64,000 nucleotides of DNA, from NCBI GenBank assembly GCA_041391825.1, contig JAWKNF010000008.1, positions 36,943-100,942 of the forward strand, in the 5' to 3' direction. Both the position numbers and the translations under genes were made by a program. This DNA is from Flavobacteriales bacterium (GTDB taxonomy: Bacteria > Bacteroidota > Bacteroidia > Flavobacteriales_F > PHOS-HE28). The notes under the pieces are model-generated. The model did no database searches, was not told where the DNA came from, and worked only from the letters and a program-made list of their open reading frames with translations. Below, in pieces: positions 4,974 to 48,828 of the stretch. The number at the start of each line of letters is the position of its first letter. The first letter of the stretch is position 1.

Positions 4974-7528
4974 ATGCTCGTTGAACGACTGATCGCGCAT
5001 GCCGTTACATTGAATGACCATGTCGCGGTCCGTTCGGTAACGGACAGGAGTACTCACGTATGGTGAGCTGCCACGGAGCTTCAGTGCGATCCGGGACTGG
5101 TTGCTGGATCGAGGGATCGAAGCTGGCGACCATGTTGGCATCGCCATGTCCAATGGCCCGGACCTGGCGATCGCTCTGCTTGGTACAGCCATGCATGCCA
5201 CTGTTACTCCGATGGATCCTGCACAGGTCCCCTTGGAATGGAGTTCCGTGCTTCGTCACGTAGGGGCGAAGGCTTTGATCACGGACCCGACCAACGAACA
5301 GGTCGCCCGTTCCGTGGGGCGTTCGTTGTCCATACCAGTTCACGTCATCCCATTTCTTCACGAAGGCCCTTTGGGTCGTTTGGCCGGTGTGGATAGGCCA
5401 GCGAAGGGATTCATGCCACCTGCTGAGGATCATATCCTGTTGATGCATCGAACCTCAGGTACCACGGGTACGAGCAAGCGCGTCCCACTGCGTATGGTGA
5501 ACATCGCTGCGCAGGCTTGCAATACGGCGGAAAGCCTGCTCTTAACCGCTGATGATCGCATTCTACAGGTGATGCCGCTGTTCCATATGCACGGCTTCGG
5601 ATACCTTACGGGTACGTTATGGAGCGGTGGTACAGTGGTCTGTACCCCGGGGCACGATGGAAGAAAGTACCCGGAGTGGTGCCGAGCGTTCCGTCCAACT
5701 TGGTTCTCTGCATCCCCGGCCATTCTTCAGGACATGGCACGGATACATGCGAAACATCCCGATCTCAAGGTCAGTTCACCCTTCCGGTTCGTCAGGTCCT
5801 TGTCCGCCGCCATTTCGGCACCATTGATCGAGGAGATCGAGAAAGTGACCGGCGCTCCGTTAGTGGAACAGTATGGACTGACCGAAGCGCTTTCTCCAGT
5901 GATTGCCAACAGGCCATTGGGTGGTGAACGGAAACGAGGTGCCATCGGCAAGCCTTTCCGCACCGAGGTCCGAATAGTCGATGGGAACGGAAAGGACGTG
6001 GCCGGTGGCTCCACTGGGGAGATCGTGCTTCGGGGGACCGGCGTCATACCTGCATATGCCGAGAGCGACGAGGTCAACACGCGTTCATGGTTCGGTGAAT
6101 GGTTCCGTACCGGGGACTTGGGAATGATCGACGAAGACGGCTTCGTTCATCTTTCGGGTCGCTTGAAGGAAGAGATCAATCGGGGCGGAGAGAAGATCGA
6201 CCCTTTGGAGGTCGAGAACGCCTTGATGGGTCATCCCGGCGTTCAAGCTGCCGCGGCCTTCGCTGTTCCGCACCCGACGCTTGGTGAGGATGTGGCTATT
6301 GCATACGTGCCTTCCGGGGTGCCGATACCGAGCAACGACTTGCGCAACTGGATGCAGGAGCGGATCTCGTTGCACAAGGTACCGAAGGTCTTCCATGCGT
6401 TGGAGGCGCTTCCGGTCACCGCAACCGGCAAGTTGAAACGCTTGGAATTGGCCAGCACCCTGCGATCAGGTTTGAACGGAGCGCTGACGCACGACCATTC
6501 GCTTGACAGTACGGAGGGGTATGAGCACGCCACTGACCGCGCACCGGTCCTGGCCAAACCGGAGCAAGCGGATCGCGCCCCGGATCTGCTCCCGGCCACG
6601 TACATAGAGCGGACCATCGCCATGGTCTGGGGTCAGGAATTGCGGCGTGATCGGATCTATTTGGATGATGACTTTTTCCAGATCGGGGGGGATAGCCTTT
6701 CCGGCGTGCGTACTTGTGCCCGCATCAGTGAAATGCTGGAGGCGAAGGTTGACCTGGCCCTGTTGTTCCGGCGACCTTCCCTGCGCGATTTTGCCGGTGC
6801 GCTGACCTCCAGTGACCGGGTGGACCATTGGCTGAACCTGACCCCGATCCGGCTTTCAGGCCCGTATACGCCATTCGTGTGCGTGCATGGCGATGAAGGG
6901 AACTACAACCTGCCTCGGCTTTTCAGCGACGATCGTCCGTTCATCGGGTTCATGCACCAAGGCGAGGATGGCAAGGGTATGCGGTACAAGACCATCCGTT
7001 CCATGGCACGGCACTATGTGAACGGAATTGCTCGAGGCACGACCCGAAGGGCCCTATATCCTGTCGGATTCAGTACGGGAGGATCCTGGCATTCGAGATG
7101 GCGCAACGCCTGGTTGCCATGGGAAAGAAGGTCCCACTGCTAGTCATGTTGGACACGCGTGGCCCGACCTTCAATTGGTGGCGCTATTCGCCACGAACGA
7201 AACTGGCCGATGCTACGCGGCGAATACCTGCGTCCGCGCTGTGAGCGGTACTTGCGCAAAGGCGTGCCCATCCCTTTCGATCTTCGCAATTTTTACATCA
7301 TCAACACCTACCGCAAGGCCGTGGGCCTACCGTCCGAAGCCCTATGCCGGTGAGGTACTATACATACGGAGCGCCCAACGAGCCGAAGAACTCATGGGTT
7401 GGGATGATCGTTGACCGGTCCGGTGCACGTGGAGGTGGTGGAAGGGAAGCACTTGGCATTATTCGCGAGCCCATGTTGCTGAGTTGGCTTCCGTATTGGA
7501 AAAGTTCATGGAGGACAAGGGGATATGA
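4974..7528 (+). pseudogene. NRPS-like adenylation (acyl/aryl-AMP ligase) + PCP + thioesterase gene. It is frameshifted at the 5' end (about 5045) and several times in the thioesterase domain (about 7030-7500).
   Basis: In-frame stop at 5037-5039; the N-terminus reads MLVERLIAHAVTLNDHVAVRSVTDRS, then shifts frame into TYGELPRSFSAIRDWLLDRG. About 2 kb of AMP-binding domain is intact (SGTTGTSKRV, YGLTE, GEIVLRG, KLKR). The PCP motif DDDFFQIGGDSL is present. The thioesterase pieces are spread over three frames: GYSTGG-like, ILAFEMAQRLVAMGKKVPLLVMLDTRGP and HVAELASVLEKFMEDKGI-stop. Confidence 0.7.
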
Positions 7529-33186: not shown

Positions 33187-33963
33187 ATGAAGCAAACTCC
33201 TTTTCCTCTTGGGTTTCTACCCGCTTCGGGTGCATTCGCACAGCTCCCCAACGGGAGCACGGCACCAGACTTCACCCTCACCGACTACTACGGCACCACG
33301 CACAACCTGTATGCCTACTTGGATGCGGACAAGACCGTGTTCGTGGAGATCTTCGCTGCCCATTGCCCCACGTGCTGGGCCTACCATCAGACGCACCGGC
33401 TGAAGAACATCTACGAGCAGTACGGCCCCGATGGTACGGATGAATTGATGGTGCTGGCCTTGGAGCACGATCCCTGGAACGACTCCACCGCCTTCACCGG
33501 GAACCATGAACCGTGGGTAACGGCAGGGGATTGGTTGACAAGTACCCCATACCCGATCTTCAACGTGGAGGATCCGGATCGCGGGGTGTTCACGGACTAC
33601 AACGTCACCTACTACCCGGTGATCTACAAGATCTGTCCGGACCGGATCCTGGAGCGTGTGTTCCCCTCCGAAACGGAAACACAGCTCTACCAGAAAGTGG
33701 AGGAATGCCAGTTGTTCGCCGCGATCGAAGAGGGGCCGGACCTGGGCCTGATCCGCGTCGATCCGCTCTCGCGCAGCCTGATCATCGATCGTTACCAGGA
33801 GGTGCAGGGGCTGGAGGTGATGGACCTGCAAGGGAGGACCATCCGAAGCATCGGGGCCATCAACAGCTCGACCATACCGCTGGGTGAGCTTCGGACCGGG
33901 GTTTATCTGTTCCGCATCCGAACGGAGCGCGGGCCTGTGGTGAAACGCTTCGTGTTGGAGTAG
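33187..33963 (+). CDS. Thioredoxin-like (TlpA/redoxin family) thiol-disulfide oxidoreductase with a T9SS C-terminal sorting domain.
   Basis: Signal peptide; APDFTLTDYYGTTHNL...KTVFVEIFAAHCPTCW has the CxxC motif. The CTD reads GLEVMDLQGRTIRSIG...LGELRTGVYLFRIRTERGPVVKRFV. Confidence 0.75.
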   Translation: MKQTPFPLGFLPASGAFAQLPNGSTAPDFTLTDYYGTTHNLYAYLDADKTVFVEIFAAHCPTCWAYHQTHRLKNIYEQYGPDGTDELMVLALEHDPWNDSTAFTGNHEPWVTAGDWLTSTPYPIFNVEDPDRGVFTDYNVTYYPVIYKICPDRILERVFPSETETQLYQKVEECQLFAAIEEGPDLGLIRVDPLSRSLIIDRYQEVQGLEVMDLQGRTIRSIGAINSSTIPLGELRTGVYLFRIRTERGPVVKRFVLE

Positions 33964-33992: not shown

Positions 33993-35569
33993 CTACTGAA
34001 CGATCAACTTCTTCGCGAAGGAGCCATGGTCCGTACTGACCCGCACGAAATAGATGCCATGTTTCAGATCGGAAAGGTCGATCGACCCCCGATCCTGTTG
34101 CAGCACGAAGGACCGCAGTTCGTTGCCGAGCAGGTCCACTACTTGCACCATTGGTCGGGTCATACCGCTGAAGCGCGGGTAGTACAGCACCGTGCGGTCT
34201 TGGGCCGGGTTCGGGTACAGCGCGAAGGCATCTTCCGCATCCGACATGTCCGGACCCAGCGTTGTGTTTGTGTTGATCGTGACCGCTTGGGAGAAGTTGT
34301 TGGAGCAGTTCGAAGCATTGGTGTTGTTCACGACCACGTTCACAGTGCCGATCGGACCAGCACCCCAGTTGACATCGATGCTGTTGGTGGAGGAGGAGCC
34401 CGTTCCGCCGTCAACGATCCATGCATAGGTGTAGCTGGCGACCAGTGGAACACTGTATGTGGCCGACTGACTGCGCAACAGTGGCAGGGCCATCGATCAT
34501 CATGGAAGGTCGCGGAGCGCTGCCCAGAAGGCGTTGAAGTTGGCCCTGTTGGAAATTGCCCACGTACACGGTGTCGCTGGCGACATGGATCGCTTGTACG
34601 GTGCTCCACACGTTCGACGCACGAGGCGTTCTAACAGGTGGCCTGCGCGCATTGCTGATCCTGGATCTGCGTACACATAGCGTTTGTCCGCCCAGGAGGT
34701 AGGAGTTAAGCGCCACCCAGATGTAGTCGCCATCCGGTAGAGGCTCAGTGTTTCAAAGCTGCTGTTGTTCGGAGCGAAAGGGTCACGTTGCCGCTGAGGT
34801 CATAGGCCGCAACGCCTTGACGAGGTACCCCACCGACCATGTCGAAATCGCCACCCACGCAGAGGTGGTCGTTCGTGGCGCACGATGGCCGTGACCCTGA
34901 AGCGAGCCATCAATGGTCCGGACAGGTGGCTGTCCAAGGCCCCGGTGAGCTTGTCGAAACGACAGAGGTCGCCGTACACGAGGCTGGTACAAGCTGAACT
35001 GCCCACCCACGTACACATGGTCATCGCCCACATGCACGGCATTGATGTTCGGCCCGCCGGCACTGAAATCCGGGGAGCCTCTGCCATCCGGTGGCCAAGC
35101 CTGTGGCATCCACGGCAACGAGCCTCGAAGGGTTCAGCTTGCAGTAACAGAAGGTGCTGTCTTCCACACCAACGCCTTGCCTCCAGGAAATGAAATTCGC
35201 ACTGTCGTCTACCTGTTCTGTTGCCCGTGGCCAGGTCGAACATGCAAATGCCCAGTCTGGGCTGGCTGTTCACGGTCTGGAATGGATTCCACCGACCATC
35301 AGTTTGTCCGCCACCCCGTTGATGGAGGTGACCGTGTTCGTGATATCCGTCGGGCTCCAGGCATCGAGTTCGTTGGTGGTGGCGCTGGAAGGGCCAGGCC
35401 AGCGCGGAACGCCATCGACCATGCTGAATTGCTCACCGATGTAAACGGTATTGCCGACCTTCTCGATGGCGTACACATCCGTGTTCGGTACAGGCCCGCC
35501 GAGCAGGGTTTGCGAGGGCGGCAAATGAGAGGGAACAGAGCAGGAGGGTAAGGAGGGTCTGGCGTGCAT
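33993..35569 (-). pseudogene. T9SS cargo protein with beta-propeller-type repeats and an Ig-like region, broken by many frameshifts.
   Basis: N-terminal signal peptide MHARPSLPSCSVPS... then VYAIEKVGNTVYIGEQFS, with NAVHVGDDHVYVGGQFS repeats in other frames. The C-terminal piece carries YAWIVDGGTGSSSTNSIDVNWGAGPIGTVNVVVNN and the T9SS CTD ALYPNPAQDRTVLYYP...GIYFVRVSTDHGSFAKKLIV. At least five frame changes are seen. Confidence 0.55.
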
Positions 35570-35707
35570 GGAGCCTGTACGTGCAAGACGGGCAATGGAG
35601 GATGGTTGTGCGGGCGGCCACGCCTTAGTCGCGCTTCTTCACACCCTGATAGAGGCCCAGCAGCTCGTCAAGCACTCAGATAGGGAATGCGCCAACGCAC
35701 AAGGCCA

Positions 35708-35790
35708 GCGCATTTTGCAAGACCAACCTATGTCCCGGCGCAGCCGACCACAGCGCGCATTTGCATAGGCTGTGACAGTCTTGCAGCACA
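35708..35790. repeat. Hairpin (inverted-repeat) element TTTTGCAAGAC...TGCATAGG...GACAGTCTTGCA, copy 1 of 3.
   Basis: Shares the TTTGCAAGAC-(C)CTATGTCC...GCATTTGCATAGG...GACAGTCTTGCA skeleton with copies at 44596-44680 and 45160-45235. Confidence 0.6.
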
Positions 35791-36499
35791 CAACCCATCA
35801 ACACCTCCCATCGCGATGCACCCCACTGGTCCCGCTCACCTCGTCCTGAGCTTCTTCACCGCTGCTGCAAGCACGCCTCAGGTCGAATTCGCCCGCGTTC
35901 AGCGCGTCCAAGCGAAGTGTAGCGCAAGGGCCAGCGTGCCGAGGTCCTCGTAGGGGCCACTGCTCACCCTCTCCATGGCGCGATTCTGACCGTCATTTTG
36001 ATGAGTACCCATTTGCCCTGGGTAAGTCCCGCCAGCTGTATCAGGCGCAATCGATACTTCCAGTTCCGTGCGGGTCATGGCGGTGCGGATCCTTCAAAGG
36101 ACGAGAACGCGGCTTTGTTGCGGATAAGGCGCCGTTGCTGCCGTCGTAGACCGACCGCGCTTATCGCATGTTCTAACCGTCGTGCGCTATGTGCAAGTAG
36201 CATCACGCATTGCACATACACAGCTACATCATGCGCCAGTCGTCGGCAGGTGGCCGCAAAGCGGGGATGTCCACGATCAGCGCGGCCGCGTCCGGCTCGG
36301 GGTCTTGTGCTGCGAGCCAGTGCGAGCTTGGACTGGCTTTGGTAGCCTGCCCCGGGCCCGACTCCGGGGTGGCGCCTTTTTTGATGGAAGCCCTGGCAGA
36401 ATTGATGCGGGGCCGGCGAAGCAAAAGGTGAAGACAATAGCGGACACCAAACTGCAGGCATTGCCCACACAGCATTGTCATCCATCACCAAGCATGCGG

Positions 36500-36915
36500 A
36501 TGCACTGTCACTTCGCACTGCTTGGTCCGCCACGTAGCACTGTTGGGTCCGTCACGTAGCACGTGGTGCTCCGTCACTTAGCACTGGTTGGTCAATCACT
36601 TACACTGCATCCATCAGGCAGCACTGGGTGGTCCATCACTTAAGCACTGGGTGGTCCACCACTTAGCACTAGGTGGTCAGGGACCACTCTACACTGGGTG
36701 GTCCACCACTTGAAGACTGGGTGTCCACCACTTAGCACTGGGCAATGCACCACTCAGCACTGGGTGGTCCATCACTTAGCACTGGGTGGTCCACCACTTA
36801 CACTCAGGTGGACCACTTAGCACTGGGTGGTCCACCATCAGTATTGGTGGTCGACCACTTAGCACCGGGGTGGTCCATCACTTAGCACTGGGTGGTCCAT
36901 CACTTAGGCCTGTAT
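36500..36915. repeat. Tandem array of about 18 imperfect 22-bp units, consensus CACTTAGCACTGGGTGGTCCAY.
   Basis: Read directly: ...cacttagcactgggtggtccat cacttagcactgggtggtccac cacttagcact... Copies are more degenerate at the left end. No ORF is present and the unit length is not a multiple of 3. Confidence 0.85.
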
Positions 36916-37975
36916 GCCGCCGTGCACGCCCCCGCTTATGGTAGTTTCCGATAGCATTATAGGACTTTCCAGTTACCGTATCGGCAACGGCGATAGGCCG
37001 CATGTCCTGTGCACGAGCGCCGCGCGAGGGACGCCATGGAATTCACCAGCGGCCGAAAAACCAAGAACGCCATGAGAGCGAACATCAAGACGGACTTGCC
37101 AACATGCTGCCCCCAGCCTTGCTGGCCTTCTTCAACCACATCATCGCGAAGCTCACCGGCAATCGCGACGTTCCTCAATCCGCCCATGTCCATAGTGGAT
37201 ATGACCACCCGGAAGTTGCCGCAGACTGCCATCTCCGCCGCCATCGATGGCAACAGCACCGACCGCGCCCACCGCAACGCCGTGGTGAAGGAGGTGCAGG
37301 ACGTGCTGCGCATCACGGCGGGGATCATGCGCGCGCCGAATGCGAGCGGCGACGCCGAGCCTGCTCACCACCGGCGGCTACCCTGGCCAAACAGCCCGAG
37401 ACGTACACGGAGTGTGGCATCCCCAAGAACGCAGCGCCAGTGCCACTGATGTAAGCGGCGAGGGTGAAGCTGTGGTGGGCTGCACGCAGGCCGCGCGCAT
37501 GTTCCGCATCGAACAGGCTTTCACCAGTGACCCCACCCTGGGCGAGACCACCCAGCCAACGTAGCAGGGGTGAGCCGCCAGCGCGTTTCACCGTTCCGGT
37601 CCTCTACGCCTGGCAGCTACTTCTAATTCCGCATCATCGCCATGGGCATCGACAGAAGGCCTACTGGCTGACGGCACTGGGCTGCCCCAGATAGCTCGGT
37701 ACCCCAGTCCTGACATGCCAGCCCCGGCACCGAAGAGGAATGCGGAGGTGGCGGGGTTATTGCGTTAGCTGCAATACCCACGCCAGCCTGCCGTAGCCAA
37801 TGGCCTTTAACCCGCCGGGCGTCTGTTGGTGACGAATGCCTGTATGGACGTTACAAAAAGCTTATGCAAGAAGAAGCATTATCGGTTGTAGTGTTGTAGT
37901 GGCTTGTCAGTAACTGTGTGGAAAGGCTTTGTATTTGGGATATTACTAGCGAACATTTGTCTCCATCTTAGCGCA

Positions 37976-39322
37976 ATGCGCTTTGTCGATTTATTCGCCG
38001 GTCTAGTGGCTCACGTTGGGCTCGAACGACTTGGACACGAGTGTGTCTTCGCGAGTGAGTTGGACCTGATGTTACAGGACGTGTCTATGAAAAGAATCAT
38101 GGTATTCGTCCAGTAGGTGATATTCGAAAGGTGAAATCTGGGCGATGTGCCCGAACACGACATTCTATGTATGCTTCCATGCCAACCATTTTCTAAGGCG
38201 GGAGAACAAGCTGGATCTGATTGTCTACGAACGGCTCACTTCGATGAAGTTCATCGGGTAATCCGATACCGTAAGCCTGAGTACGTCATCCTTGAGAATG
38301 TCCCGAATCTGCGGCACTCACGATGATGGGCGTACATGGGCATCAATCAAACAGAGCCTTGAGTAGGCTCGGATACGCGGTTGCAGAATGTATCTACTCG
38401 CCGCATGAGTTTGGCATAATTCTGATCTGAAAGCGACTGCCGCCCGTTGCTAAGCGAGACGAAGGGTTCTGCTGGCCGAAGCGACCTGTGAACCTGTCGT
38501 CGTTGCGCAACATTCTTGACAAGGAGCCAATTGGTGCCCGACCACTCAGCCCCAGTTGTAGACTGTCTGGAAGTATGGCAGGACTTCTTGAATCGAATAC
38601 CCAAGGACGCCCCATTTTCCAGTCATGGTCGATGGAGTTCGGTGCGACGTACCCTTCGAGGAGCAGACGCTGTTCTCTAGGCAGCGAAGGGCTTAGGCAT
38701 ATCGAGGGGCGCAAGGTATGAGACTTGACAGAAGAGATATTCCAGATGCGTTCGAGGCGCTGCTATCTTATGCGCGCACTGAGGACGACCAGTTCCCAGC
38801 TTGGGAAGCGAGCGTTCATAAGGCCGAACCGAGCGTTCTATCAGAAACACAAACGAGAACTGAAATCGTGGTTGCTGGAGATCCTCCGCTTCCCACCGTC
38901 GCCGCAGAAGTTCGAGTGGAATTGTAAGGGAGGTGAGCGCGATGTTTGAAGTATGATCCAGTTTCGGCCTAGGCGCGTGCAACGACCTGACACGAGTCCT
39001 TCATTGGTCGCAATGATCACTACACAGGTTCATCATCGGCTGGGAACGCTACATGACCACTAATGAATGCGCTCAATTACAATCGTTTGGACTGCTGAAG
39101 CATCTGCCCTCCACTGGAACGAAAGCCTTTAAGGCGTTTGGCAATGCGGTGAATGCAAGGTTGGTGGCCAACGCTGGCGAACTTCTTGATGCCCATCAGG
39201 ATGCTGCACCATCCGCTACGAAGCCAATCAGGCAGAGCACCACTTACTGCTCGCTTGATATGTATCTTCTTTACTATGGACGTCAATATCCGCCCAGGGG
39301 TCAATATTCTTTCTGTACTTAA
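37976..39322 (+). pseudogene. C5 cytosine-specific DNA methyltransferase (Dcm-type), heavily frameshifted and stop-interrupted, inside a low-GC segment.
   Basis: Motif I MRFVDLFAGL...GLERLGHECVFASELD; motif IV QPFSKAGEQAGSD in a shifted frame; motif VI ILENVPNL; motif X LTTNECAQLQSFGLLKHLP...AFKAFGNAVNARLVA. No single frame stays open for more than about 90 aa. Confidence 0.7.
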
Positions 39323-39344
39323 TACCTGAGCTATAAGCATTGGT

Positions 39345-40481
39345 ATGCTCGGCGAGTTCGTCGACAATGCAGTCAACAGCGGCATAGAGCGCAATTGGAA
39401 TCGACTGCAATCGATGCATGGTCAAGGTTACAAGCTGCGCGTGGACATTGAGACGATAAGAACGACGGTGTGTCGCATCGTTATCTGCGACAATGCTGCT
39501 GGCATCGCTTCTGTCGACTACCAACGTGCTTTTCGGACCGCAGAGATACCAATTGATCGTACTGGTTTCTCTGAGTTCGGGATGGGGATGAAGAGTGCTG
39601 GCTTCTGGTTCACCAACACATGGACTGTCCGCACAAAAGCCATTGGTGAGAACCGTGCAGGCAAGATTTATTTGATCTAGCCAGGGCATCATGGATGGTG
39701 GTCTTGAGACTCTGCCGGTGGAAGAGGAGCTCGCGAAAATGGAGGAGCATCATCGAGTTGGTACTTCTTTCGGCCAGCTAAGATGGTCAAGAGACCATTG
39801 GAAAGATTTCAAGGAGCATCTCACGAGCATCGCCAGTTCCTCAATGTGAGGGGAAGCTGGAGATATATTATGACGGCGAGTTGCTCCACTATGAAGAACT
39901 TAAAATTCTGGAAGCGGCTAATCCCAGAGACCCCGGGCAAAGTGGTCGTCTGAAGAAGCAAGTGGACGTCCGACTTGCAGGCAACAAGCGCATACACGGG
40001 TTCGTAGCGATTCGCGAGGAAGCGAAGCTGTCGTGGAGGCTTGGATTGGCCTTGTTCCGTCGCGGTCGGTCGATCTTGGGGAGCGGGGATGGCTATCGAC
40101 TCCACTTCCGTGTTCGGACAACCTAACAGTTAGTCGCTATCAACGGCATTCAAGAACTACACGTCGAAGGCTTTGGAGTAAGCCATACAAAGGATGTTAT
40201 CCAGTGGGAACATTCCCGAAGAGGACTTCGTTGGTTCTCAGGAAGTGATTGATGCAGAGCCGTTGCCGATTTTGAAGATGGCGGAAGAATACCGCGCACG
40301 AACAAGGACCACGAGCATTGTCCGAGCAGCACAATCTGCAGCAGCGTCAACGGCGCAAGCTTCTGGCGCGGCGCAAGCGATCATCGATGGCCAGCGACAT
40401 GAGCAAAAGCTGTTCCTAGCCCACTGCCAGTATCGCTTCCTTTGTCAGTTGAGATACCTGCAACCAAAGAGTTCAAATTGA
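39345..40481 (+). pseudogene. GHKL-type ATPase (HATPase_c_3/MORC-like), frameshifted after about 110 aa.
   Basis: N-box EFVDNAVNSG, G1 box ICDNAAGI, G2 box FGMGMKSAG in the first 111 aa. Downstream pieces continue in other frames. Confidence 0.55.
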
Positions 40482-40815
40482 CTTTTCTCGTATCAGGAGT
40501 GGCTCGTCACTATCGATCTGGCGAACGATTCTGCAATAGAGGACTGGCTGGATATATCGCAGAACCAAAGGAGCGATAGGCAGCGCCAATTGAAAATTCG
40601 CGTGAACCTTCGCGCATCCGTTCATGCAACGGTTCAGTGGGGCATCCGGGGAACAGATCGAGCTCATGTTGCGCGTTGCGGGCTGCGTTAGCCATTGCAG
40701 AGACTATTGCTCGATGTTGGGGTTCGACAAGCGGGTACTATCAGACAGCATAAACGAGTTGCCCAGAAGTTGCCCTTATGCGCCGAGCGAGACGAACGAC
40801 TAACAGGTGGCATGA

Positions 40816-42400
40816 GTGATATTCAACTTGATTGAACCAAACATGGCATCTTCTGGTGTTGGCTGGGTACCTGCAATTGGGCAGGAGACCGAAGATCTTC
40901 TTGAACACTTCAAGGGGAAGTTGGACGAAGTGCAGGGAGCGAGAACCTCATTGAATCAACGACTCGGATTTCGGCCAATGCGCTCTAACAGTTGGCCCTG
41001 CAGACAACAGCAACCGGTCTGGTAGCTGGATATGTTCAGAGCGGCAAGACGATGTCCTTTACGACCGTGGCTGCGATGGCAGTGGACAACGGCTATCCAG
41101 TGGTAATTGTAATAACTGGCACGTCCAACGACCTATATCGACAGTCCGCACAGCGACTTGAACAAGACCTCTGCCTTCATTCGCGCTTTGACCGCAAGTG
41201 GCAACATCTGCAAGAACCAAGACAGAACGAAGGTGACCGCATCAGCAGGATACTCCAGATTGAGGACCCTAGCGTGCCAATTCCTTGATCGACAGATACT
41301 TTGTTACAATCAAGAAGAACTGGAGTGTGCTACGGAGGCTGATCACTTTGCTGCGCCAATGCGACCTGAACGGAATTCCTGCTTTGATCATCGATGACGA
41401 GGCGGATCAGGCGAGCTTGAACACTAGAGTGAACGATGACGATGAGAGCGCTACTTACGCCCGTATTCGTGGGCTCCGAGGTTTATTCCCCTGTCAAGCA
41501 CCTTTCTGCAGTACACTGCTACGCCGCAAGCCAATCTACTCATCAACATCCTTGATAGCCTTTCTCCCGACTTTGTTGAGTTGCCAACACCCGGTGAAGA
41601 CTACTCCGGTGGTATCGAGTTTTTCGGTGATGACTCCAGGTCTCGTTCGCGATATACCCGTGAACGAACTACCTGCGCGGAACAACCCTGCACCTGAGGT
41701 TCCTGAAACCTTGATGGAAGCGATGCGTGTGTTCTTCCCGCTGGTGTGGCTATCGGCACATTAAGGGTGAGGCGCGTCAGGGCAAGAACCGCAGCATGTT
41801 GGTACATCCATCTCGAGAAACCAATCCACAGGGGTACTATGCACAATGGGTCAGGCATCTCAAGCGCCACTGGAAGCGGACTCTTTCTCAGCCGGAGGGC
41901 ACCAGGACGATAGGAGTTACTCGAGGACTTCAAGTCGGCGTTTGATGATATCGCCCAGACTGTTCCCGAGGACTGCCGACATGGGAGGAAGTCTCCAATG
42001 CATTGTGCCGGGCGATTGCAAAGACCGATAGCGGGGAAGTGAACTCAACCACGCGTTTGGTGGCTGATACCAATTACATCAGACTATGCGCGGATACTCA
42101 TTGGCGGCTACACTCGATCGGCTTCACAATTGAAGGTCTAACGGTGACTCATATGCCGCGAGGACTTGGGTCTATGGAACTGCTGACACGCTGCAACAGC
42201 GTGCTCGCTTCTTTGGTTATAAACGGAGCTATTTGGGGTATTGCAGGCTGTACTTGGATGCTGGCGTCCGAGATGCCTTCATTGACTACGTGGAGCACGA
42301 GGAGAGCATACGAAGAATTGAATGACCTCAGAACGCGACAAGTGCCGTTGAAGCAATGGCGGCGGGCGTTCATCTGTCTCTCCTGATTGCAAACTCACGC
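40816..42400 (+). pseudogene. Z1-domain-like P-loop NTPase, the kind of protein typically linked to C5-MTase genes; multiply frameshifted.
   Basis: LQTTATGLVAGYVQSGKTMSFTTVAAMAVDNGYPVVIVITGTSNDLYRQSAQRLEQDL is a Z1-type Walker A segment. It is followed by ...GIPALIIDDEADQASLNT (Walker B/DEAD-like) in another frame. Confidence 0.5.
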
Positions 42401-44504
42401 GGAGAAACGTTCTTTCGTTGACCATCTCCGTGATGGCGGCGACCGGTGGTTCTGGGTGAAGGCTCCGCATGCATCTATGGACTTGTGTGGCGAACCGAAT
42501 TGCATTCGACTTTTACCGACCGGCACAGTTTCTGGAACCACCTCGGCGATCTTTCGGTGCTGCTGCCACGCGGTACATGGGGTTGCTGGATTGGCGCTCA
42601 GTGACGTTTGCGAGCAGCTTCTTTTCTCAGAGGCGTTCCGAACCTGAAGAGAATCAGAAGTACGGGGTGCCTTCCAGATTGATAGGTTCCTCAGAGAGCA
42701 TCCGCATGAGCTATGCGATGTCTACATCATCTGACCGGACGATAGTGCACGATGCCGCTAACGACAAGCAGGAGATCGATAACATTTTTCAGCTCGAATA
42801 GACAGGAAGGTGATCCGCAGTACTACCTTGGTGACAGAGAAATTCACGCAGAGAGATTGACTATTCAATTGCGGCGCTTGACATTGACCCAGAACGGGGC
42901 AGAGATCAAGCACAGACATTCCGGTGCTGGCAATCTGGGTGCCTGGTTCTATGGAGCAGCAATGGCTTGTTCAATGACTAGTTGATGAAGGAGTTGCTCA
43001 AAGCGTTTGAGTTCCCTTCCTGCCTGCGTGATTCTTCTGCGGGGTTGTTCGCATTTCATACCCTCCTTGCTCTTTCCCAAGGCCCGGTTCCTCATTGCGA
43101 AGACAACTTCTTGTGTGAGGCATGCATGCTCATAGGTACGGCTGCATCCTTGGCTACACTTCCACCGCCTTTACGGTTAGAGAATCCTCACCGTTCAGCA
43201 TGTACTGACGGTCGAGTTCATAAGTTATATGGCTGCGGGTACATTCTCTGTGGTTCTTCGCAATAGCCAGCGTTCATTGGTAGAGATGTTCGTCAGGTTT
43301 TGCGGTTGTTGCTACGCATCAACTTCCTGGGACCCCATAGCGGCTGATGCGGCTTCCCACATCCAGAGGCTCGTCCTCTTCGCTTCTTCAGCACCTGCGC
43401 AAGCCAAGCACCAAGACCATTCAAGGGCTTTGAGTGAACTCTTTCTATCGCTACACGAGATAACCCTGAACGGGTCAATGGATGGCATGTGCATCCAATG
43501 GGCCTGCACGATTTCATCTTGAAGAAATTCGCTGAGGCTAACATGCCTCATAAGGTTAGTCGCATCGCTTTTCGCACAATCAACTTTCTCCACCAAGGGG
43601 GGGCATCGCTCTTCGTAGCGTCAGTGCTAATGGAACGATCCGGTCAGGGTATATCAGTGTTCGACCTGCCGAGAGGGCGCATGCACGCCTTTCTCCCAAT
43701 GCCTCACTTCTTCTTGATAGCACGCATCAATAATTTCAACGCTTGGTCTCGACTACGTGAAGTGTTGGCGGAAATCACCTGACGCTGCCTGCGCAGCAGA
43801 CTCCACTCCTCTTCTTTCCTTGGATGTGGTGCCACGCCTGTCCGCTGACACTCCCGAGCGGGTTACTGAGCATCTCCTACACCGTCAGATTATTTGACTT
43901 GACGGCGAGCCGGATTTGGTCGTTGCGTGAGCGACCGCAGCGAAAATCCCGCAAGCGTCCAGTATATTTAGGCGCGCCCAAACCTTTAAAATGTTGCCCG
44001 TGTCCAGTCACTTCAATTTTGGTCCATACCTTCCGCACCATCGTCAGCATCGCAGCAATAGCCACCGTCTCGCCGGCTGTAAAGTCGTTTATTCAGGAAT
44101 CTGTTCTTGCCAGTAGTGCAGGTGCTCCTTATAGCCGTTCCTTTCAGGGTGTTCCAAGTCCAGCATCCGCCTAGCGCCGCATCAAACGCCGCCAACTGTT
44201 CGCTTTGCACAACTCGATGAGTCTTCGTAAAGAGCATACTCGCCGTAGAGATGGAAGATGGTGTTGCCGAAGGTCCTGTCAGCTGCCCCTTGCTGACTGG
44301 TCTCGAGGCTGCAGTCCGCGAGTTCAGTTTTCAGCCATCCGGCATCGTTGTGGAGCATAGGAATCGTCGCTTGAGCAATGCTTCGGAAATGGGCATAGGT
44401 TCCGATGTCAACGAGCACGCTTCTCATCGATCTCCTCAACGCTCGCGGACCTTGCGTTTGAGGTTAAAGACGACGACATCCCACCATATCGTGCAGTCAG
44501 TTTT

Positions 44505-44770
44505 GGATAGAGCTTTCACCATGGTCAAGATCGTCGCTGTCGCCACCGTCTCCCGGTCTCATCCACATAAGAATGCTTCCGCGCATGCGGCCCGCGCTTT
44601 TTGCAAGACTGTCCTATGTCCTATGCAGCCCACCACGGGGTTCGCATTTGCATAGGACATCAGACAGTCTTTGCATCGTACAACATCAGCGCCGATCGAG
44701 TTTCCGGACCATGGTAAGAATAGTGGCAATGGCAACCGTCTCCCTGTTTCATCCACCACATCCACCAGCC
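44505..44770. repeat. About 260-bp repeat block, copy A. It contains the hairpin element and two copies of the sub-motif GCGATGGCAACCGTCTCCC-GTTTCATCCAC.
   Basis: Direct comparison with 45085-45350 shows the same order of sub-motifs at roughly 80% identity. A further partial sub-motif copy lies at about 44055. Confidence 0.7.
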
Positions 44771-45084
44771 ACTTCATGAGCCCTTGGTCTTATAGTTGAA
44801 CTTCTCACTAACAGGACCATGGTCACGAGGAAGTGAGTCCCGATGGCAATTAACAAATAGAACCACCACACAAGTGCATTGCCTCTCGAAAGAGCGAACA
44901 GTCCGTACAGAAGAGGAGTTAATTGTACAGTGCCAGGATGACCAGATGGCGGAAGATGGTTGTTTCGACTCCTGCTGCGTGCGGCGAGTGCGAAAACTGC
45001 CGCCCTCAGCAATAGATAGCCGACGAGTAGCCGACCAGGTCATCCCCGCATGGTCTCATCCGTTCTGATCCAACTTCCCCACCG

Positions 45085-45350
45085 TCGTCAAGACGTCGCA
45101 ATGGCCACCGTCTCCCGGTCTCATCCACAAAAGAAGAAGCCCGCGCACAAGGCTCAGTAAGCGTAAGACTGTACCATGTCCTATGCGCCCAGCATGGGGC
45201 TCAGATTTGTATATAGACACCGGACAGTCTTGGTATCGTACTGCTCATCGCCCTCCGATCGAGCTTCCGGACCATGGTAAGAATAGAAGGCGATGGCAAC
45301 GGTCTTCCAGTTTCGTCAACACATCCACCAGGAACTTCACAATGCCTGTC
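45085..45350. repeat. About 260-bp repeat block, copy B.
   Basis: See copy A. Confidence 0.7.
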
Positions 45351-45399
45351 GCGATGTCTGCACCTCCTTAGGGGCTGTCCTCGGTCTTCGGCTTCTTCT

Positions 45400-47250
45400 C
45401 CCGATCCACCTCTCTTTCACCGTGAACTTCACTTGATCACGGCGCCGGGGTATACTGGCTTGCGAAGCGGGCTTCCTCGACGCCGTAGTTCAGCAGCACC
45501 GGCCCTTTGGCGCATCCACGAAGAGCATGCGCGGCTGAGGATGAAGTGCTGTGCGCCACACGTCCGGTGAAGATGGTGCCGTCCAGGCGTTCTCGTCCAT
45601 GTGGGCGTAGAACTTGTCGCGCACGAGGTCCGCGAAGTTGTTGATGTCGTCCAGCGTCACGGTGTGCTTCTCGCCATCACGGTATCGCCCACCCGCACCG
45701 AAGTGCAATGCGGAAGGTGTGCTTCGGTGTAATCGTTTGCTTGGCACTTGTTGGTACTGTTGCGTGAGCGCGGTGATGGTGGTGGGGCTGCTCGATGGCG
45801 GTGTTGCAGTGCAGCACGCCGCGCTTGCCGCCCATCTCCTGGCCGCCACCCGCGCGACCAGGACCGCCGTGGCCAGCGTGGCCAAGGGTGAGCTTTCGTG
45901 GCCGGTGTTCTCCTTCGCCATGTCGCGGTCGATCACCAGCATGCGGCCGTGGTGGCTCGCAGCACCCCACACGAACTGCTGTGCGATGCTGTCGTCGTAG
46001 GTCGCGATGCCGGTACAGAGGCTCTTGCCGAGCTTGGTGAGGGCCACGGCATCGTCGATGTCCTTGTAGGGCATCAAGGTGCTCACCGACCGAAGGCCTC
46101 GATGTTGTGGCTTCGCTGGTTCTTCCACGGGTCCTTGTTCAGCAGCAGGGATGGGGCTCGCGGCTGCACCTTCGCCGCATCGGCACCGGTCACTCTACGT
46201 TTTTCGGGTCGCCGTACACCGTACCGCCGCCCTTCATCAGTTCGGCGAGGCTGTCGCGCATCAGCAGTGTTGCGTCTGTCCGGCGAGGGCACTCATGGCG
46301 CACGCCTTCGGCACGCGGGTCACCGATCACCGTGCCGAGGCGCTTGCCCAGCGACCTGCACATCCTCCACCAGGTTCTCGGGCACCCGCGATGCGCCGCG
46401 CACCGGTGCAGCGCTGGCCGCACTTCGTCATCTCCTTGCCGACCTCCTCTGATGAAGAGCGTGAACTCCTCGGTATCCGGCGTGGCATCGGGACCGAGCA
46501 CGATGCTGTTCAAACTGTCGGCCTCCATGCCGGTGCCACGCTCTCGGCGATGATGCGCGGGTGGCTTTCAGCATGCGGCCGGTCTTCGCACTACCGGTAA
46601 AGGTGACGACGTCCTGGCTTTCGACACGATCGAGCAGATCACCGCACTACCCACTTCATCAGCTGCAACGCCCCTTCGGGCAAGGGATCTGCTTTCGACG
46701 ATCGCCTTCGCCATCGCTTCGCGAGGTAGCTCGTCACGGTAGCGGGCTTCACCACGGCGGGCATCCCGGCCATCCAATTCACGGCGCACTTCTCCAGCAT
46801 GCCCCAGATAGGGAAGCGAACGCGTTGATGTGCACGGCCACGCCCTCCTTCGGCACCATGATGGTGGCCCATGAACGTCCCGCCGGCGGCTGGTGAGCAC
46901 CGGTGGTCCATCCACATAGAAGGGCATGCTGAGCCTGCTTGCGCAAGCTGGCGTTGGCGAACACGTTGCCGATGCCGCCCTCGATGTCCACCTGCACTCG
47001 TCGGCCTTGGTGGCGCCGGTGGTAGGCCGCATCTTGTAGAACTCGTCCTTGCGGTCCATGAGGTAGAGCGCGAGGGCCTTCACATGCGGCCGCTCCGGGA
47101 AGGTCATCTTGCGCAGGGGAGGACCGGCCCACTTCGCGGGCGTAAGTGAGCATGGCGCCGAAGTCCAGGCCGCTGCTTGACGTTGTGGCGATGAGTTGCC
47201 GGTGGAGGCGTCCACCAATTCACTTTATTGCCGGTGCCGGCACCCAGTGG
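45400..47250 (-). pseudogene. PaaZ-like bifunctional aldehyde dehydrogenase / MaoC-hotdog hydratase gene, high GC, riddled with frameshifts.
   Basis: Minus-strand fragments: ALDH motifs FPIWGMLEKCAVNWMAGMPAVVKPATVTSYL, ...MAKAIVES... and GDPRAEGV. The C-terminal MaoC piece reads HTVTLDDINNFADLVRDKFYAHMDENAW. The pieces are spread over all three frames. Confidence 0.5.
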
Positions 47251-47339
47251 CCGGCGATGTAGTTCTGTAGCTGCATTGGTGCTAAGGTCGGGAGGAATCG
47301 GGGAACGGCAGAGGAATGCGAATACATCCGCGATCACGT

Positions 47340-48795
47340 AGAGAGCACTTCGCTACCGCTCGTGGGTGGGGATGGTCGGGAATACATCCATAGACACAGA
47401 CGCTCTTGCCAACGCTCGTGGTGCTGGATGGTCGGCCGTGACCGCCGATTACGTTGATGTAGGTATTCTGCTACCGCTCGTGGGTGGGGATGGTCGGGAA
47501 TACATCCACAGATGTCACATCACTTCGCTAACGCTCGTGTGCTGGGATGAGTTGAATGTAGATCCGCCAACATGTTGATGCACTCGCTACTGCCGTGCGG
47601 CGTTGCCGGGCAACTCATCAGGAAAGGCTGCCGTTAGGCAAGCGATCTGCGTAATCTGCATCAGTTCTTTCCTTGACCATCCACAGATGTCGCTGCATCA
47701 CTTCGCCAACGCCCGTGTGCTGGGATGGTTGGGGAACACATCCGCGGATTACGCAGAGGTACTCGCTACCGCTCGTGGGTGGGGATGGTCGGGAATACAT
47801 CCACAGATGTCACGCATCACTTCGCTAACGCTTGTGTGTTGGGTTGGTAGGGAATATATCCGCGGATTACGCAGGACCTGTCCTGCCTAGTGGGAGGCAC
47901 CGCTACCGCTCGTGTGGCATTGCAGGGTATCTCTTATCAGCAAAGGTTGCCGTTAGCAAGCCATTCGCGTAATCTGCGATCAGTCTCTTTCCTTGACCAT
48001 CCACAGATAACACAGATCACTTCGCTAACGCCGTGTGCTGGGATGGTTGGGAATACATCCGCGGATTACGCAGAGGTATCGCTACTGCTCGTGGGTGGGG
48101 ATGGTCGGGAATACATCCACGGATGTCACGCATCACTTCGCTAACGCTTTCGTGTGTTGGGCTGGTAGGGAATACATCCGCGGATTACGTAGAGTAGACT
48201 CGCTACCGCTCGTGGGTGGGGATGGTCGTAAATACATCCACAGATGTCATTGCATCACTAACGCTCGTGTGCTGGGATGGTCGGGTCGTAGATCCGCCGA
48301 TTGCGCTGATGCACTCGCTACCGCTCGTGTGGCATTGCAGGGCATCTCATCAGGACAAGGCTGCCGTTAGGCAAGCCATCTGTGTCATCTGTGGATCGTT
48401 CTTATTCTTCCTTGATCATCCACAAATGTCACGGATCACTTCGCCAACGCTCGTGTGCTGGGATGGTCGGGTCGTAGATCCGCCGATTACGCTGATGCAC
48501 TCGCTACCGCTCGTGGGTGGGGATGGTCGGGAATACATCCACAGATGTCACGGATCACTTCGCTAACGCTCGTGTGCTGGGATGGTTGGGGAATACATCC
48601 GCGGATTACGCAGAGGTACTCGCTACCGCTCGTGTGGCGTTGCCGGGCAACTCATCAGGAAAAGGCTGCCGTTAGGCAAGCCATCTGCGTGATCCCGATT
48701 CTCGGGACAGGTCCTGCGGATCGTTTCTTTTTCCTTGACCATCCACAGATGTCACGGATCACTTCGCTAGTGCTCGTGGCTGGGATGCGTTGAAC
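47340..48795. repeat. Complex higher-order tandem repeat of about 1.45 kb. It alternates about 59-bp X and Y units (CGCTCGTG..GGGATGGTCGGGAATACATCC...) with interspersed about 125-bp Z units.
   Basis: More than 20 units read directly from the sequence. Each unit has the GGATG-N10-CATCC mini-hairpin. Y units carry the palindrome TCCGCGGA. Z units share GGCATTGCAGGGCATCTCATCAGGA-AAGGCTGCCGTTAGGCAAGCCATCTG. There is no consistent reading frame. Confidence 0.85.
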
Positions 48796-48828
48796 GTAGC
48801 GGCCTCCGGGCGTGCGGATGATGGGGCG

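Follow-up and report, generated by a model that had tools for sequence, protein, structure and literature searches.

The repeat array and its locus

The subject of this analysis is a tandem array of 22-bp repeats in a 64,000 nt stretch of the genome of a Flavobacteriales bacterium (assembly GCA_041391825.1, contig JAWKNF010000008.1, forward-strand positions 36,943 to 100,942). The whole stretch is referred to below as the window, and coordinates given without the name of a locus are those of the window. In the window and in related loci (designated by L numbers), the array is part of a constant gene order, consisting of a gene on the opposite strand for a 79-aa XRE-type helix-turn-helix (HTH) protein, a spacer, the array, a conserved element of about 70 bp, and a gene that we designate Y. 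The HTH gene adjoins the array in every case. The features in the window are as follows.

35856..36078, minus strand: XRE-family HTH gene, aligning to the HTH gene of L061 (8836-9075), broken by small insertions and deletions (indels)
36079..36508, no strand: spacer from the start of the HTH gene to the array, with remnants of an insertion resembling a miniature inverted-repeat transposable element (MITE)
36509..36907, plus strand: 22-bp tandem array of ~18 units, with arrays at the same position in relatives
36935..37005, plus strand: conserved ~70-bp element (TATGGTAGTTCCCGATAGCGTATGGGAGTTTCCCATACCGTATCGGCAACGGCGATAGGCCGCA in relatives; 9859-9930 in L061), from alignments
37072..37694, plus strand: gene Y, aligning to L061 10001-10624, broken by small indels

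Tandem Repeats Finder placed the array at 36509-36907 on the plus strand, with a period of 22, 18.3 copies, the consensus CACTTAGCACTGGGTGGTCCAC, 74% matches and 10% indels. The repeat of about 18 copies reported in the first-pass annotation is real, and that observation is confirmed, but its description as perfectly tandem is not borne out, given the 74% matches, the small indels and the drifting register. The 21-mer core has eight matches at up to three mismatches, all within the array (none expected in shuffles), and only three copies are perfect. Small indels shift the register, and 12 of the 18 units are not 22 long in a greedy parse, which is approximate; the four leftmost units (36509-36596) are in exact 22-bp phase and differ through substitutions. 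The units are contiguous and lack unique spacers, so the array is indeed, as had been stated, not a CRISPR (clustered regularly interspaced short palindromic repeats) locus. The junction of units gives a dyad, GGTGGT-CC-ACCACT, and no other copy of the 22-bp array is found anywhere in the window.

Every consensus unit contains TAG on the plus strand and TAA on the minus strand, so no frame is open through the array, in agreement with its first description as non-coding, and a period of 22, not being divisible by 3, does not fit a coding tandem repeat. The consensus units of the main clade of relatives have stop codons in all six frames. A separate observation concerns L082, where a gene caller placed a 211-aa open reading frame (ORF) over the 22-bp array (5313-5948), on a strand that happens to have no stops; the corresponding entry in public databases is almost certainly not a real protein. 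A known structured RNA family was not recognised, there being no Rfam match at the gathering threshold in the whole window, and scans of the whole window for tRNA and tmRNA found none. Folding of the array as a single strand was no better than that of shuffles (z = -1.3).

Arrays at the same position in relatives

Scans of genome, metagenome and viral collections with the exact 21-mer gave no match, so relatives could be reached only by way of the flanking gene Y. The related loci are the intact Y loci with enough upstream DNA, together with L081 and L082, found separately by way of the HTH gene. A 22-bp array lies at the same place in each of the ten independent related loci that extend far enough upstream, and the hosts of these loci are one group of uncultured Flavobacteriales from sludge. 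Every one of the ten arrays has a period of 22, which falls within the ~17-22 bp of phased direct repeats that characterizes iterons. Most consist of 17-26 units (400-570 bp), and a number of about 20 is above that typical of iterons. The arrays and their units are listed here.

L061/L062/L063: 26 units, CCACCACTTAGCACNAGGTGCT, 88% match
L065: 25 units, mainly CACCACTTATGTCGTAGTGGTC, 93% match
L066/L067: ~20 units (19 in the identity and autocorrelation analysis), GTGGTnnnCGGTCAnCGAGGCC, 73% match
L068/L069: 8-13 units, CCACCACCCAGCACYGGGTGC
L074: ~17 units, CCACTACTTAGTACCAAGTGCT
L075: array present; contig ends within the array
L076: ~21 units, 46% alike; its Y is only 62% identical
L081: 21-22 units; minor variants ACCACTTAGCACTGGGTGGTCG carry the consensus core of the window, CACTTAGCACTGGGTGGTC
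L082/L083: 19-20 units in L082, TGCTCCACCACCCAGCACTACT

The interiors of the arrays are lineage-specific (CCACCACTTAGCACNAGGTGCT, CACCACTTATGTCGTAGTGGTC, CCACTACTTAGTACCAAGTGCT and TGCTCCACCACCCAGCACTACT in L061, L065, L074 and L082), and the edge units across lineages approach a common form, about CCACCACCCAGCACTGGGTGC. L061 and L081, for example, have edge units in common and different interiors. Turnover of the unit with a kept period is, to judge from these sequences, concerted evolution. The first-pass annotation had described the copies as degrading toward the left, as expected of slippage. Older variant units are indeed found at the left edge, as in the relatives, but a recent and decaying slippage product is not supported, because arrays with very different units keep an exact 22-bp phase. 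Many units have a short dyad, such as AGCACC-A-GGTGCT (L061), AGTGGT-CC-ACCACT (L065) and AGTACG-RY-CGTACT (L076).

The array is not a dispersed repeat, since the 21-mer is absent from the collections searched and large 22-bp arrays in 1.19 Mb of clade DNA occur at this locus only. All large arrays of any period in that DNA are at this site but two, namely the 60-bp array of the window (described below) and a 21-bp array at L074 1-149. The latter has 7.1 copies of CGCATCAAGTCGAGCGCGTGA with 91% matches and lies beyond the HTH gene, at the end of the contig.

Apparent constraint on the register

No register-breaking indel was found in about 200 units of the ten arrays outside the window. In L066, 19 units have a mean pairwise identity of 66%, and the autocorrelation at lag 22 is 0.73 compared with 0.25 at lags 21 and 23 (z = 20.7). 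The 21 units of L076 are 46% alike (z = 10.7 at lag 22), with three near-invariant positions and nine near-random ones. Diverged neutral sequence is expected to gain indels, an expectation that derives from general indel-to-substitution ratios and is uncalibrated for these loci, and a register kept at unit identities of only 46% or 66% suggests that phasing is under selection. In a neutral minisatellite, unit length and positions would be unconstrained after divergence, which does not describe the exact register of L076 and L066.

Sequences flanking the array

The start of the broken HTH gene (ATGACCCGCACGGAACTGG) is readable at 36078 on the minus strand, and its intact relatives, of 79 aa, match HTH_3/HTH_31. 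The spacer that separates the HTH gene from the array is 149-933 bp in relatives. In L065 (8700-9280) and L068 (8850-9480), a MITE-like insertion of ~600 bp lies between the HTH gene and the array, bounded by terminal inverted repeats (…AAAGGTGGAGCCAAAGATCAACCACGATCAAAG / CTTTGATCGTGGTTGC…GGCTCCACCTTT…) and including a strong hairpin like that of a bidirectional terminator. Remnants of this insertion are present in the window at 36260-36390 (among them …TCCACGATCAGCGCGG… and GGTGG…TTTTTT), and the terminator-like hairpin of the window (36347-36382) belongs to these remnants. A different insertion, of ~190 bp and with an inverted repeat (GAGCCTGTTTGGGTCTCTTC … GAGATCCCAAACAGGCTC), is found on the other side of the array in L074 (1085-1280) and L075 (169-376), between the array and the conserved promoter-proximal element. 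By our reckoning, the phase from array to promoter element is the same in L061, L065 and L068, and differs in L074 through the insertion. The distance from the end of the array to Y is 148-216 bp in most loci and ~335 bp in L074.

The ~70-bp element begins 141-143 bp before the ATG of Y in the six relatives with a match, and 134 bp before it in the window; no match was found in L066. It is conserved above the neighbouring coding sequence and contains nested inverted repeats, TATGGGA-GTT-TCCCATA and TATCG-N7-CGATA. The second of these is swapped for CTTGG-N7-CCAAG in L066, the HTH protein of which is divergent, and the conserved hairpins have no T tract. The element is probably the promoter/operator region of Y, and the repeats could serve as an operator or as an RNA hairpin.

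When reconstructed across the frames of the window, Y is 52-64% identical to the members of a 207-aa family (P0001-P0018), and the Y proteins of the clade are 76-91% identical. A model of Y made with AlphaFold2 (AF2) from a shallow alignment had a predicted local distance difference test (pLDDT) score of 58, and a deeper alignment gave a model with a pLDDT of 97, in which a helical bundle is joined to an Fn3 domain. Fold searches with the model match the Fn3 domain only, and Y has no match in PADLOC, NCBIfam or Pfam. The wider family, of ~205 aa, numbers 678 representatives at E <= 1e-10 (P0019-P0167 are listed), without annotated function. No array accompanies a paralogous subfamily of Y-like genes from which the HTH gene is missing. 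Separately, a Y paralogue in the same organisms was observed to lie before the gene for an LRR-Roc-COR protein.

Sequence quality around the array

The array had been placed in a decayed island, and small indels break the HTH gene, Y, and the C5 methyltransferase, HATPase_c_3 and Aldedh/MaoC genes further along. A low-gap-penalty pairwise alignment of the DNA overstated indels even between intact genes, and singleton changes were therefore counted with MAFFT, at sites invariant in the other relatives.

Aldedh/MaoC, window: 88 singleton substitutions, 32 small indels (1-4 bp)
Aldedh/MaoC, relatives: 55-127 singleton substitutions, 0-1 small indels
Y, window: 49 singleton substitutions, 12 small indels
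Y, relatives: 4-15 singleton substitutions (60 in the more distant L066), 0 indels (one in-frame 3-bp indel in L066)

Over ~14 kb (34500-48800), the window carries ~2% small indels (1-4 bp), with little or no excess of substitutions relative to orthologues. The indels are mostly of 1-2 bp, include both insertions and deletions, and occur in non-repetitive contexts. The substitutions in the Aldedh/MaoC gene of the window are transition-biased (59/88, compared with 32-53% in relatives), and changes unique to the window fall at positions identical in six relatives, in coding and non-coding sequence alike. By the statistics of homopolymer runs, the noisy stretch could not be told apart from its flanks. 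Many of the related genomes are, judged by contig names of the type "tig…", long-read metagenome-assembled genomes from wastewater plants.

An indel rate of ~2% with little or no excess substitution fits a poorly polished long-read consensus better than the decay of pseudogenes. We are fairly confident, from the pattern of changes in the assembled sequence, that the 34.5-48.8 kb region is an unpolished consensus over a strain-variable region, and the island would then not be decayed, its excess changes being mainly 1-2-bp indels in random contexts. The raggedness of the array in the window would follow, since the surrounding ~14 kb is probably poorly polished, and the array in this genome would probably be a clean 22-bp array of ~18 units. 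The supposed island would also be an example of a long-read assembly in which a strain-variable region mimics pseudogenisation.

A variable region of defence genes

The array and Y form the left border of a region containing lineage-specific defence genes, and its right border is a PaaZ-like Aldedh/MaoC gene, at which the variable stretch ends in L061, L065, L066 and L074. The gene content beyond Y is different in every lineage. The cargo includes TIR_2 with HicAB and RelE; McrBC with EVE; Dcm with HATPase_c_3; RlaP; HNH_2 and MazG-like genes with CTD9, MC5 or HD-CE; and Beta_protein with P4_cII. The HTH-array-Y module remains fixed as the cargo changes, and the site is syntenic and chromosomal. 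Because the cargo between Y and the Aldedh/MaoC gene differs in each lineage, the array appears to border a hotspot for the exchange of defence genes, of which it is the left edge. In the window, the cargo and right border are represented by the following genes.

37976..39187, plus strand: C5 cytosine DNA methyltransferase gene, the first cargo gene (Pfam DNA_methylase, E 3e-23), with in-frame stops and indels
39330..39677, plus strand: GHKL-type ATPase fragment, cargo (Pfam HATPase_c_3, E 9e-11)
45265..47290, minus strand: PaaZ-like Aldedh/MaoC_dehydratase gene, from tblastx and pairwise alignment to L061, L065, L066 and L074, with ~32 small indels

The methyltransferase aligns in frame with residues 12-125 of M.HhaI, and an intact DNA_methylase and HATPase_c_3 pair is present in the same region of L066. 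The array had been described as lying at the left edge of the ORF-poor island, but it is ~2 kb inside a stretch that begins at ~34.5 kb. The suggestion that it marks the border of a mobile element stands in so far as it adjoins a variable region whose genes are exchanged horizontally, but no integrase gene was found there. Among the called genes within 6-10 kb on either side in L061, L065, L066, L068, L081 and L082, no Rep, Par, relaxase or integrase gene was found, apart from one rve fragment in L065, and no flank has a member of the ParA, ParM or TubZ families, that is, a partition NTPase. Pfam searches of six-frame translations of 34600-39399 returned DNA_methylase only and no Rep-like family, and window positions 35500-38000 had no blastn match in 72,556 plasmids or 50,697 phages. 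A replication origin with iterons, as the first-pass annotation had considered, is not supported by these results.

The long ORFs in the flanks are unremarkable for Bacteroidota (HlyD, ABC ATPase, two MacB/FtsX permeases and DUF6090). Synteny traced from the upstream ABC-transporter permease gene (60 loci) ended at 28.2 kb and was uninformative on the array. No long ORFs occur from ~29 kb to 45.5 kb, a host-like coding signal is absent from ~34.5-45.3 kb in a codon-usage scan trained on the flanks, and ORFs remain broken up to ~48.8 kb. GC content drops to ~52% between 38 and 45 kb. Small intact genes are present for a thioesterase (29.1-29.6 kb) and a redoxin (33187-33963), the latter with what is, by eye, a probable sorting tail of the type IX secretion system. 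Reassignment of TGA, TAG or TAA as a sense codon was tried and gave no coherent long frames in 34.5-45 kb.

Three further features of the window were observed. Broken frames on the minus strand at 34600-35500 have a repeated GGxFxxVDGVPR and by eye resemble the beta-propeller repeats of an interrupted gene; they have no Pfam match at E < 0.01. Just past the Aldedh/MaoC gene, at 47600-48800, is a second tandem region with units of ~60 bp and higher-order periods of 119-121 bp and ~305 bp; within the units are a palindrome, ATCCGCGGAT, and repeatedly occurring blocks, for example GGCAACTCATCAGGAAAGGCTGCCGTTAGGCAAGC. Its sequence is unrelated to the 22-mer, and it was not seen past the Aldedh/MaoC gene of L074. 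A short repeat based on CGT/CAT trinucleotides, with periods of 3, 12, 15 and 18, is found at 1219-1291.

A predicted platform of phased binding sites

The position and period of the array are conserved, its copy number is roughly similar in most lineages, it has no coding capacity, and no replication or partition genes accompany it. The explanation that we tentatively favour, at a little short of even chances, is that the array is a conserved chromosomal element specific to this clade, acting in cis through helically phased, predicted protein-binding sites. The array would most probably act as DNA rather than through an RNA or protein product. Every unit would hold a single putative binding site, usually with a short dyad, and the 22-bp spacing, about two helical turns, would put all the sites on one face of the helix. 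A geometry of this kind had been recognised in the first-pass annotation, whose interpretation is supported in part, and is consistent with both the period and the frequent presence of a dyad in each unit. Cooperative coating of the array by a small DNA-binding protein could then give a nucleoprotein platform that would control or insulate Y and the adjacent variable genes; the neighbouring XRE HTH repressor is the obvious candidate for the binder. Units would turn over by unequal exchange and slippage, with selection holding the period.

Several observations weigh against this explanation. The binding of a protein to the array is something that we infer, and a limited search of the literature found no description of an analogue of such an array. 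The recognition helix of the HTH protein is nearly constant (QSKISDIE) in L061, L065 and L068 despite their different units, which makes any covariation between HTH protein and unit weak, and no convincing pattern of covariation between recognition helix and unit sequence was found. The ~70-bp element is a better candidate for the operator of the HTH protein than the array is. MITE-like insertions are tolerated on both sides, next to the HTH gene in L065 and L068 and next to the promoter element in L074 and L075, so that the array is not in tight phase with either promoter. In L074 and L066 the dyad is imperfect or hard to make out, and the array of L068 has only ~8-13 units. The clade is also narrow (18 Y clusters and 19 HTH clusters), so shared ancestry could account for part of the conservation.

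A quite unlikely extension is that the HTH-array-Y module as a whole is a previously undescribed chromosomal device that marks and controls the border of the exchange hotspot. In one version, a phased nucleoprotein filament of ~20 units would act on newly acquired defence genes as a boundary, silencer or switch; in the other, a 22-nt repeat RNA and the Fn3 protein Y would be a new repeat-RNA/protein pair acting in defence or addiction. In Bacteroidota, little is understood of how defence genes are regulated and exchanged. Were the array a binding platform kept in phase by selection, it would be a chromosomal equivalent of the iteron and centromere arrays of plasmids, at the edge of a defence-island hotspot in this phylum. 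It would also be a clear example, in nature, of concerted evolution with a constant period and a changing unit sequence.

Alternative explanations

A neutral minisatellite, arising once by slippage in a long intergenic region and kept by descent and unequal exchange without any function, is fairly unlikely. Unequal exchange would produce the lineage-specific amplification of variants, the conserved edge units and the higher-order blocks, the clade is narrow in its Y proteins (76-91% identity), insertions are tolerated on either side of the array, and a binder is only postulated. However, the array persists at all ten loci, mostly at 17-26 units, although the unit sequence has turned over completely, the arrays with units 46% and 66% alike have no phase-breaking indel over 420-460 bp, and conservation in L076 is position-specific. 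It is improbable that the product is instead a transcribed 22-nt repeat RNA, either an antitoxin like those of type III toxin-antitoxin systems or a protein "sponge", acting with Y in defence. Direct repeats immediately upstream of a gene, in an orientation fixed in the main clade and with defence genes adjoining, are what such a system would look like, and some units can form small hairpins (for example, AGCAC-NNN-GUGCU, or the G.U-compatible AGUAC/GUGCU in L074). On the other hand, no intrinsic terminator was found between array and Y (L061 9000-10100 scanned), nor any sigma-70-like promoter, by a scan that does not cover Bacteroidota promoters. Units of 22 nt in ~20 copies are unlike ToxI, the helical bundle and Fn3 domain of Y have no nuclease-like fold or family match, the MITE in L065 and L068 puts a bidirectional terminator-like hairpin just upstream of the array, the conserved GTGGT/ACCAC core has the opposite orientation in L066 and L076, and Rfam yielded no match.

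The remaining explanations have less to recommend them. Oriented, Chi-like or otherwise recombinogenic motifs could make the array a hotspot for swapping the neighbouring defence genes, as it lies one gene from the point where the gene content of the lineages changes, and the CCACCAC[C/T] of the units (complement GGTGGTGG/AGTGGTGG) resembles what we take to be the Chi sequences of E. coli (GCTGGTGG) and H. influenzae (GNTGGTGG). Those Chi sequences may not be that of Flavobacteriales, the motif is reversed in L066 and L076, the role would not need strict 22-bp phasing, and unit sequences diverge too fast to offer homology between strains, all of which make a recombination-promoting boundary very unlikely. 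That the array represents iterons, a replication origin or the partition centromere of an integrated plasmid, phage or integrative and conjugative element is highly improbable: the period, the tandem direct repeats, the dyad in each unit, the small adjacent DNA-binding gene and the position at the edge of a variable region recall classical iterons or plasmid centromeres, but the flanks lack Rep/initiator, ParA/ParM/TubZ, relaxase and integrase genes save the rve fragment of L065, plasmids, phages and viral contigs gave no match, the module stays while the cargo changes, and ~20 units is well over the usual number of iterons. An array collapsed or invented by the assembler is scarcely credible. 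The surrounding ~14 kb does look like low-quality consensus, and short-read contigs of relatives often end within the array (L063, L067, L075 and L083), so copy numbers may be unreliable, but many assemblies made independently, from different samples, have an array at this position, and in several of them unique sequence flanks it on both sides.

Comparison with known systems

Iterons of 22 bp are found in the R6K gamma origin (seven copies) and in pPS10 (four copies). In general, iterons number ~3-9 and lie beside a rep gene, with DnaA boxes and an AT-rich unwinding region on the replicon. The array is similarly head-to-tail and non-coding, with a 22-bp period that would phase bound proteins helically, but differs in having ~20 units at a fixed chromosomal site with GC-rich flanks, no rep gene, and no similarity to plasmids or phages. 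Tandem repeats also make up partition centromeres, such as sopC of F (12 x 43 bp, each with an inverted repeat), parC of R1 (10 x 11 bp) and parC of pSK41 (20-bp repeats). The many tandem units with a dyad and the adjoining gene for a small DNA-binding protein are shared features, and a cooperative nucleoprotein filament would be the expected product at the array, by analogy. Unlike these centromeres, the array is chromosomal and off mobile replicons, has no partition NTPase gene nearby, and has a neighbour encoding an XRE-type HTH protein rather than one of the ParB or ribbon-helix-helix type.

ToxI, the RNA of a type III toxin-antitoxin system, consists of 5.5 repeats of 36 nt. The array resembles the loci of this type (ToxIN, CptIN, TenpIN) in that tandem direct repeats immediately precede a protein gene amid phage-defence genes. 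The definition of a type III locus is an order of repeats, terminator and toxin gene (PMC12283969). No terminator separates the array from Y in L061 (9000-10100), Y does not resemble the ToxN-like RNases (the ToxN, CptN and TenpN endoribonucleases), and insertions between array and Y are tolerated in L074 and L075, all unlike the type III arrangement. Bacterial minisatellites, variable-number tandem repeats and the repeats of contingency loci share with the array its concerted evolution, homogenised interior, older edges and differences in copy number; unlike them, its period is free of indels at 46-66% unit identity, its conservation is position-specific, and it is kept in every lineage examined. 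In its geometry, then, the array is closest to iterons and tandem-repeat centromeres, although it appears to belong with neither of these, nor with type III loci, and we would class it among phased tandem binding-site arrays, with a putative function.

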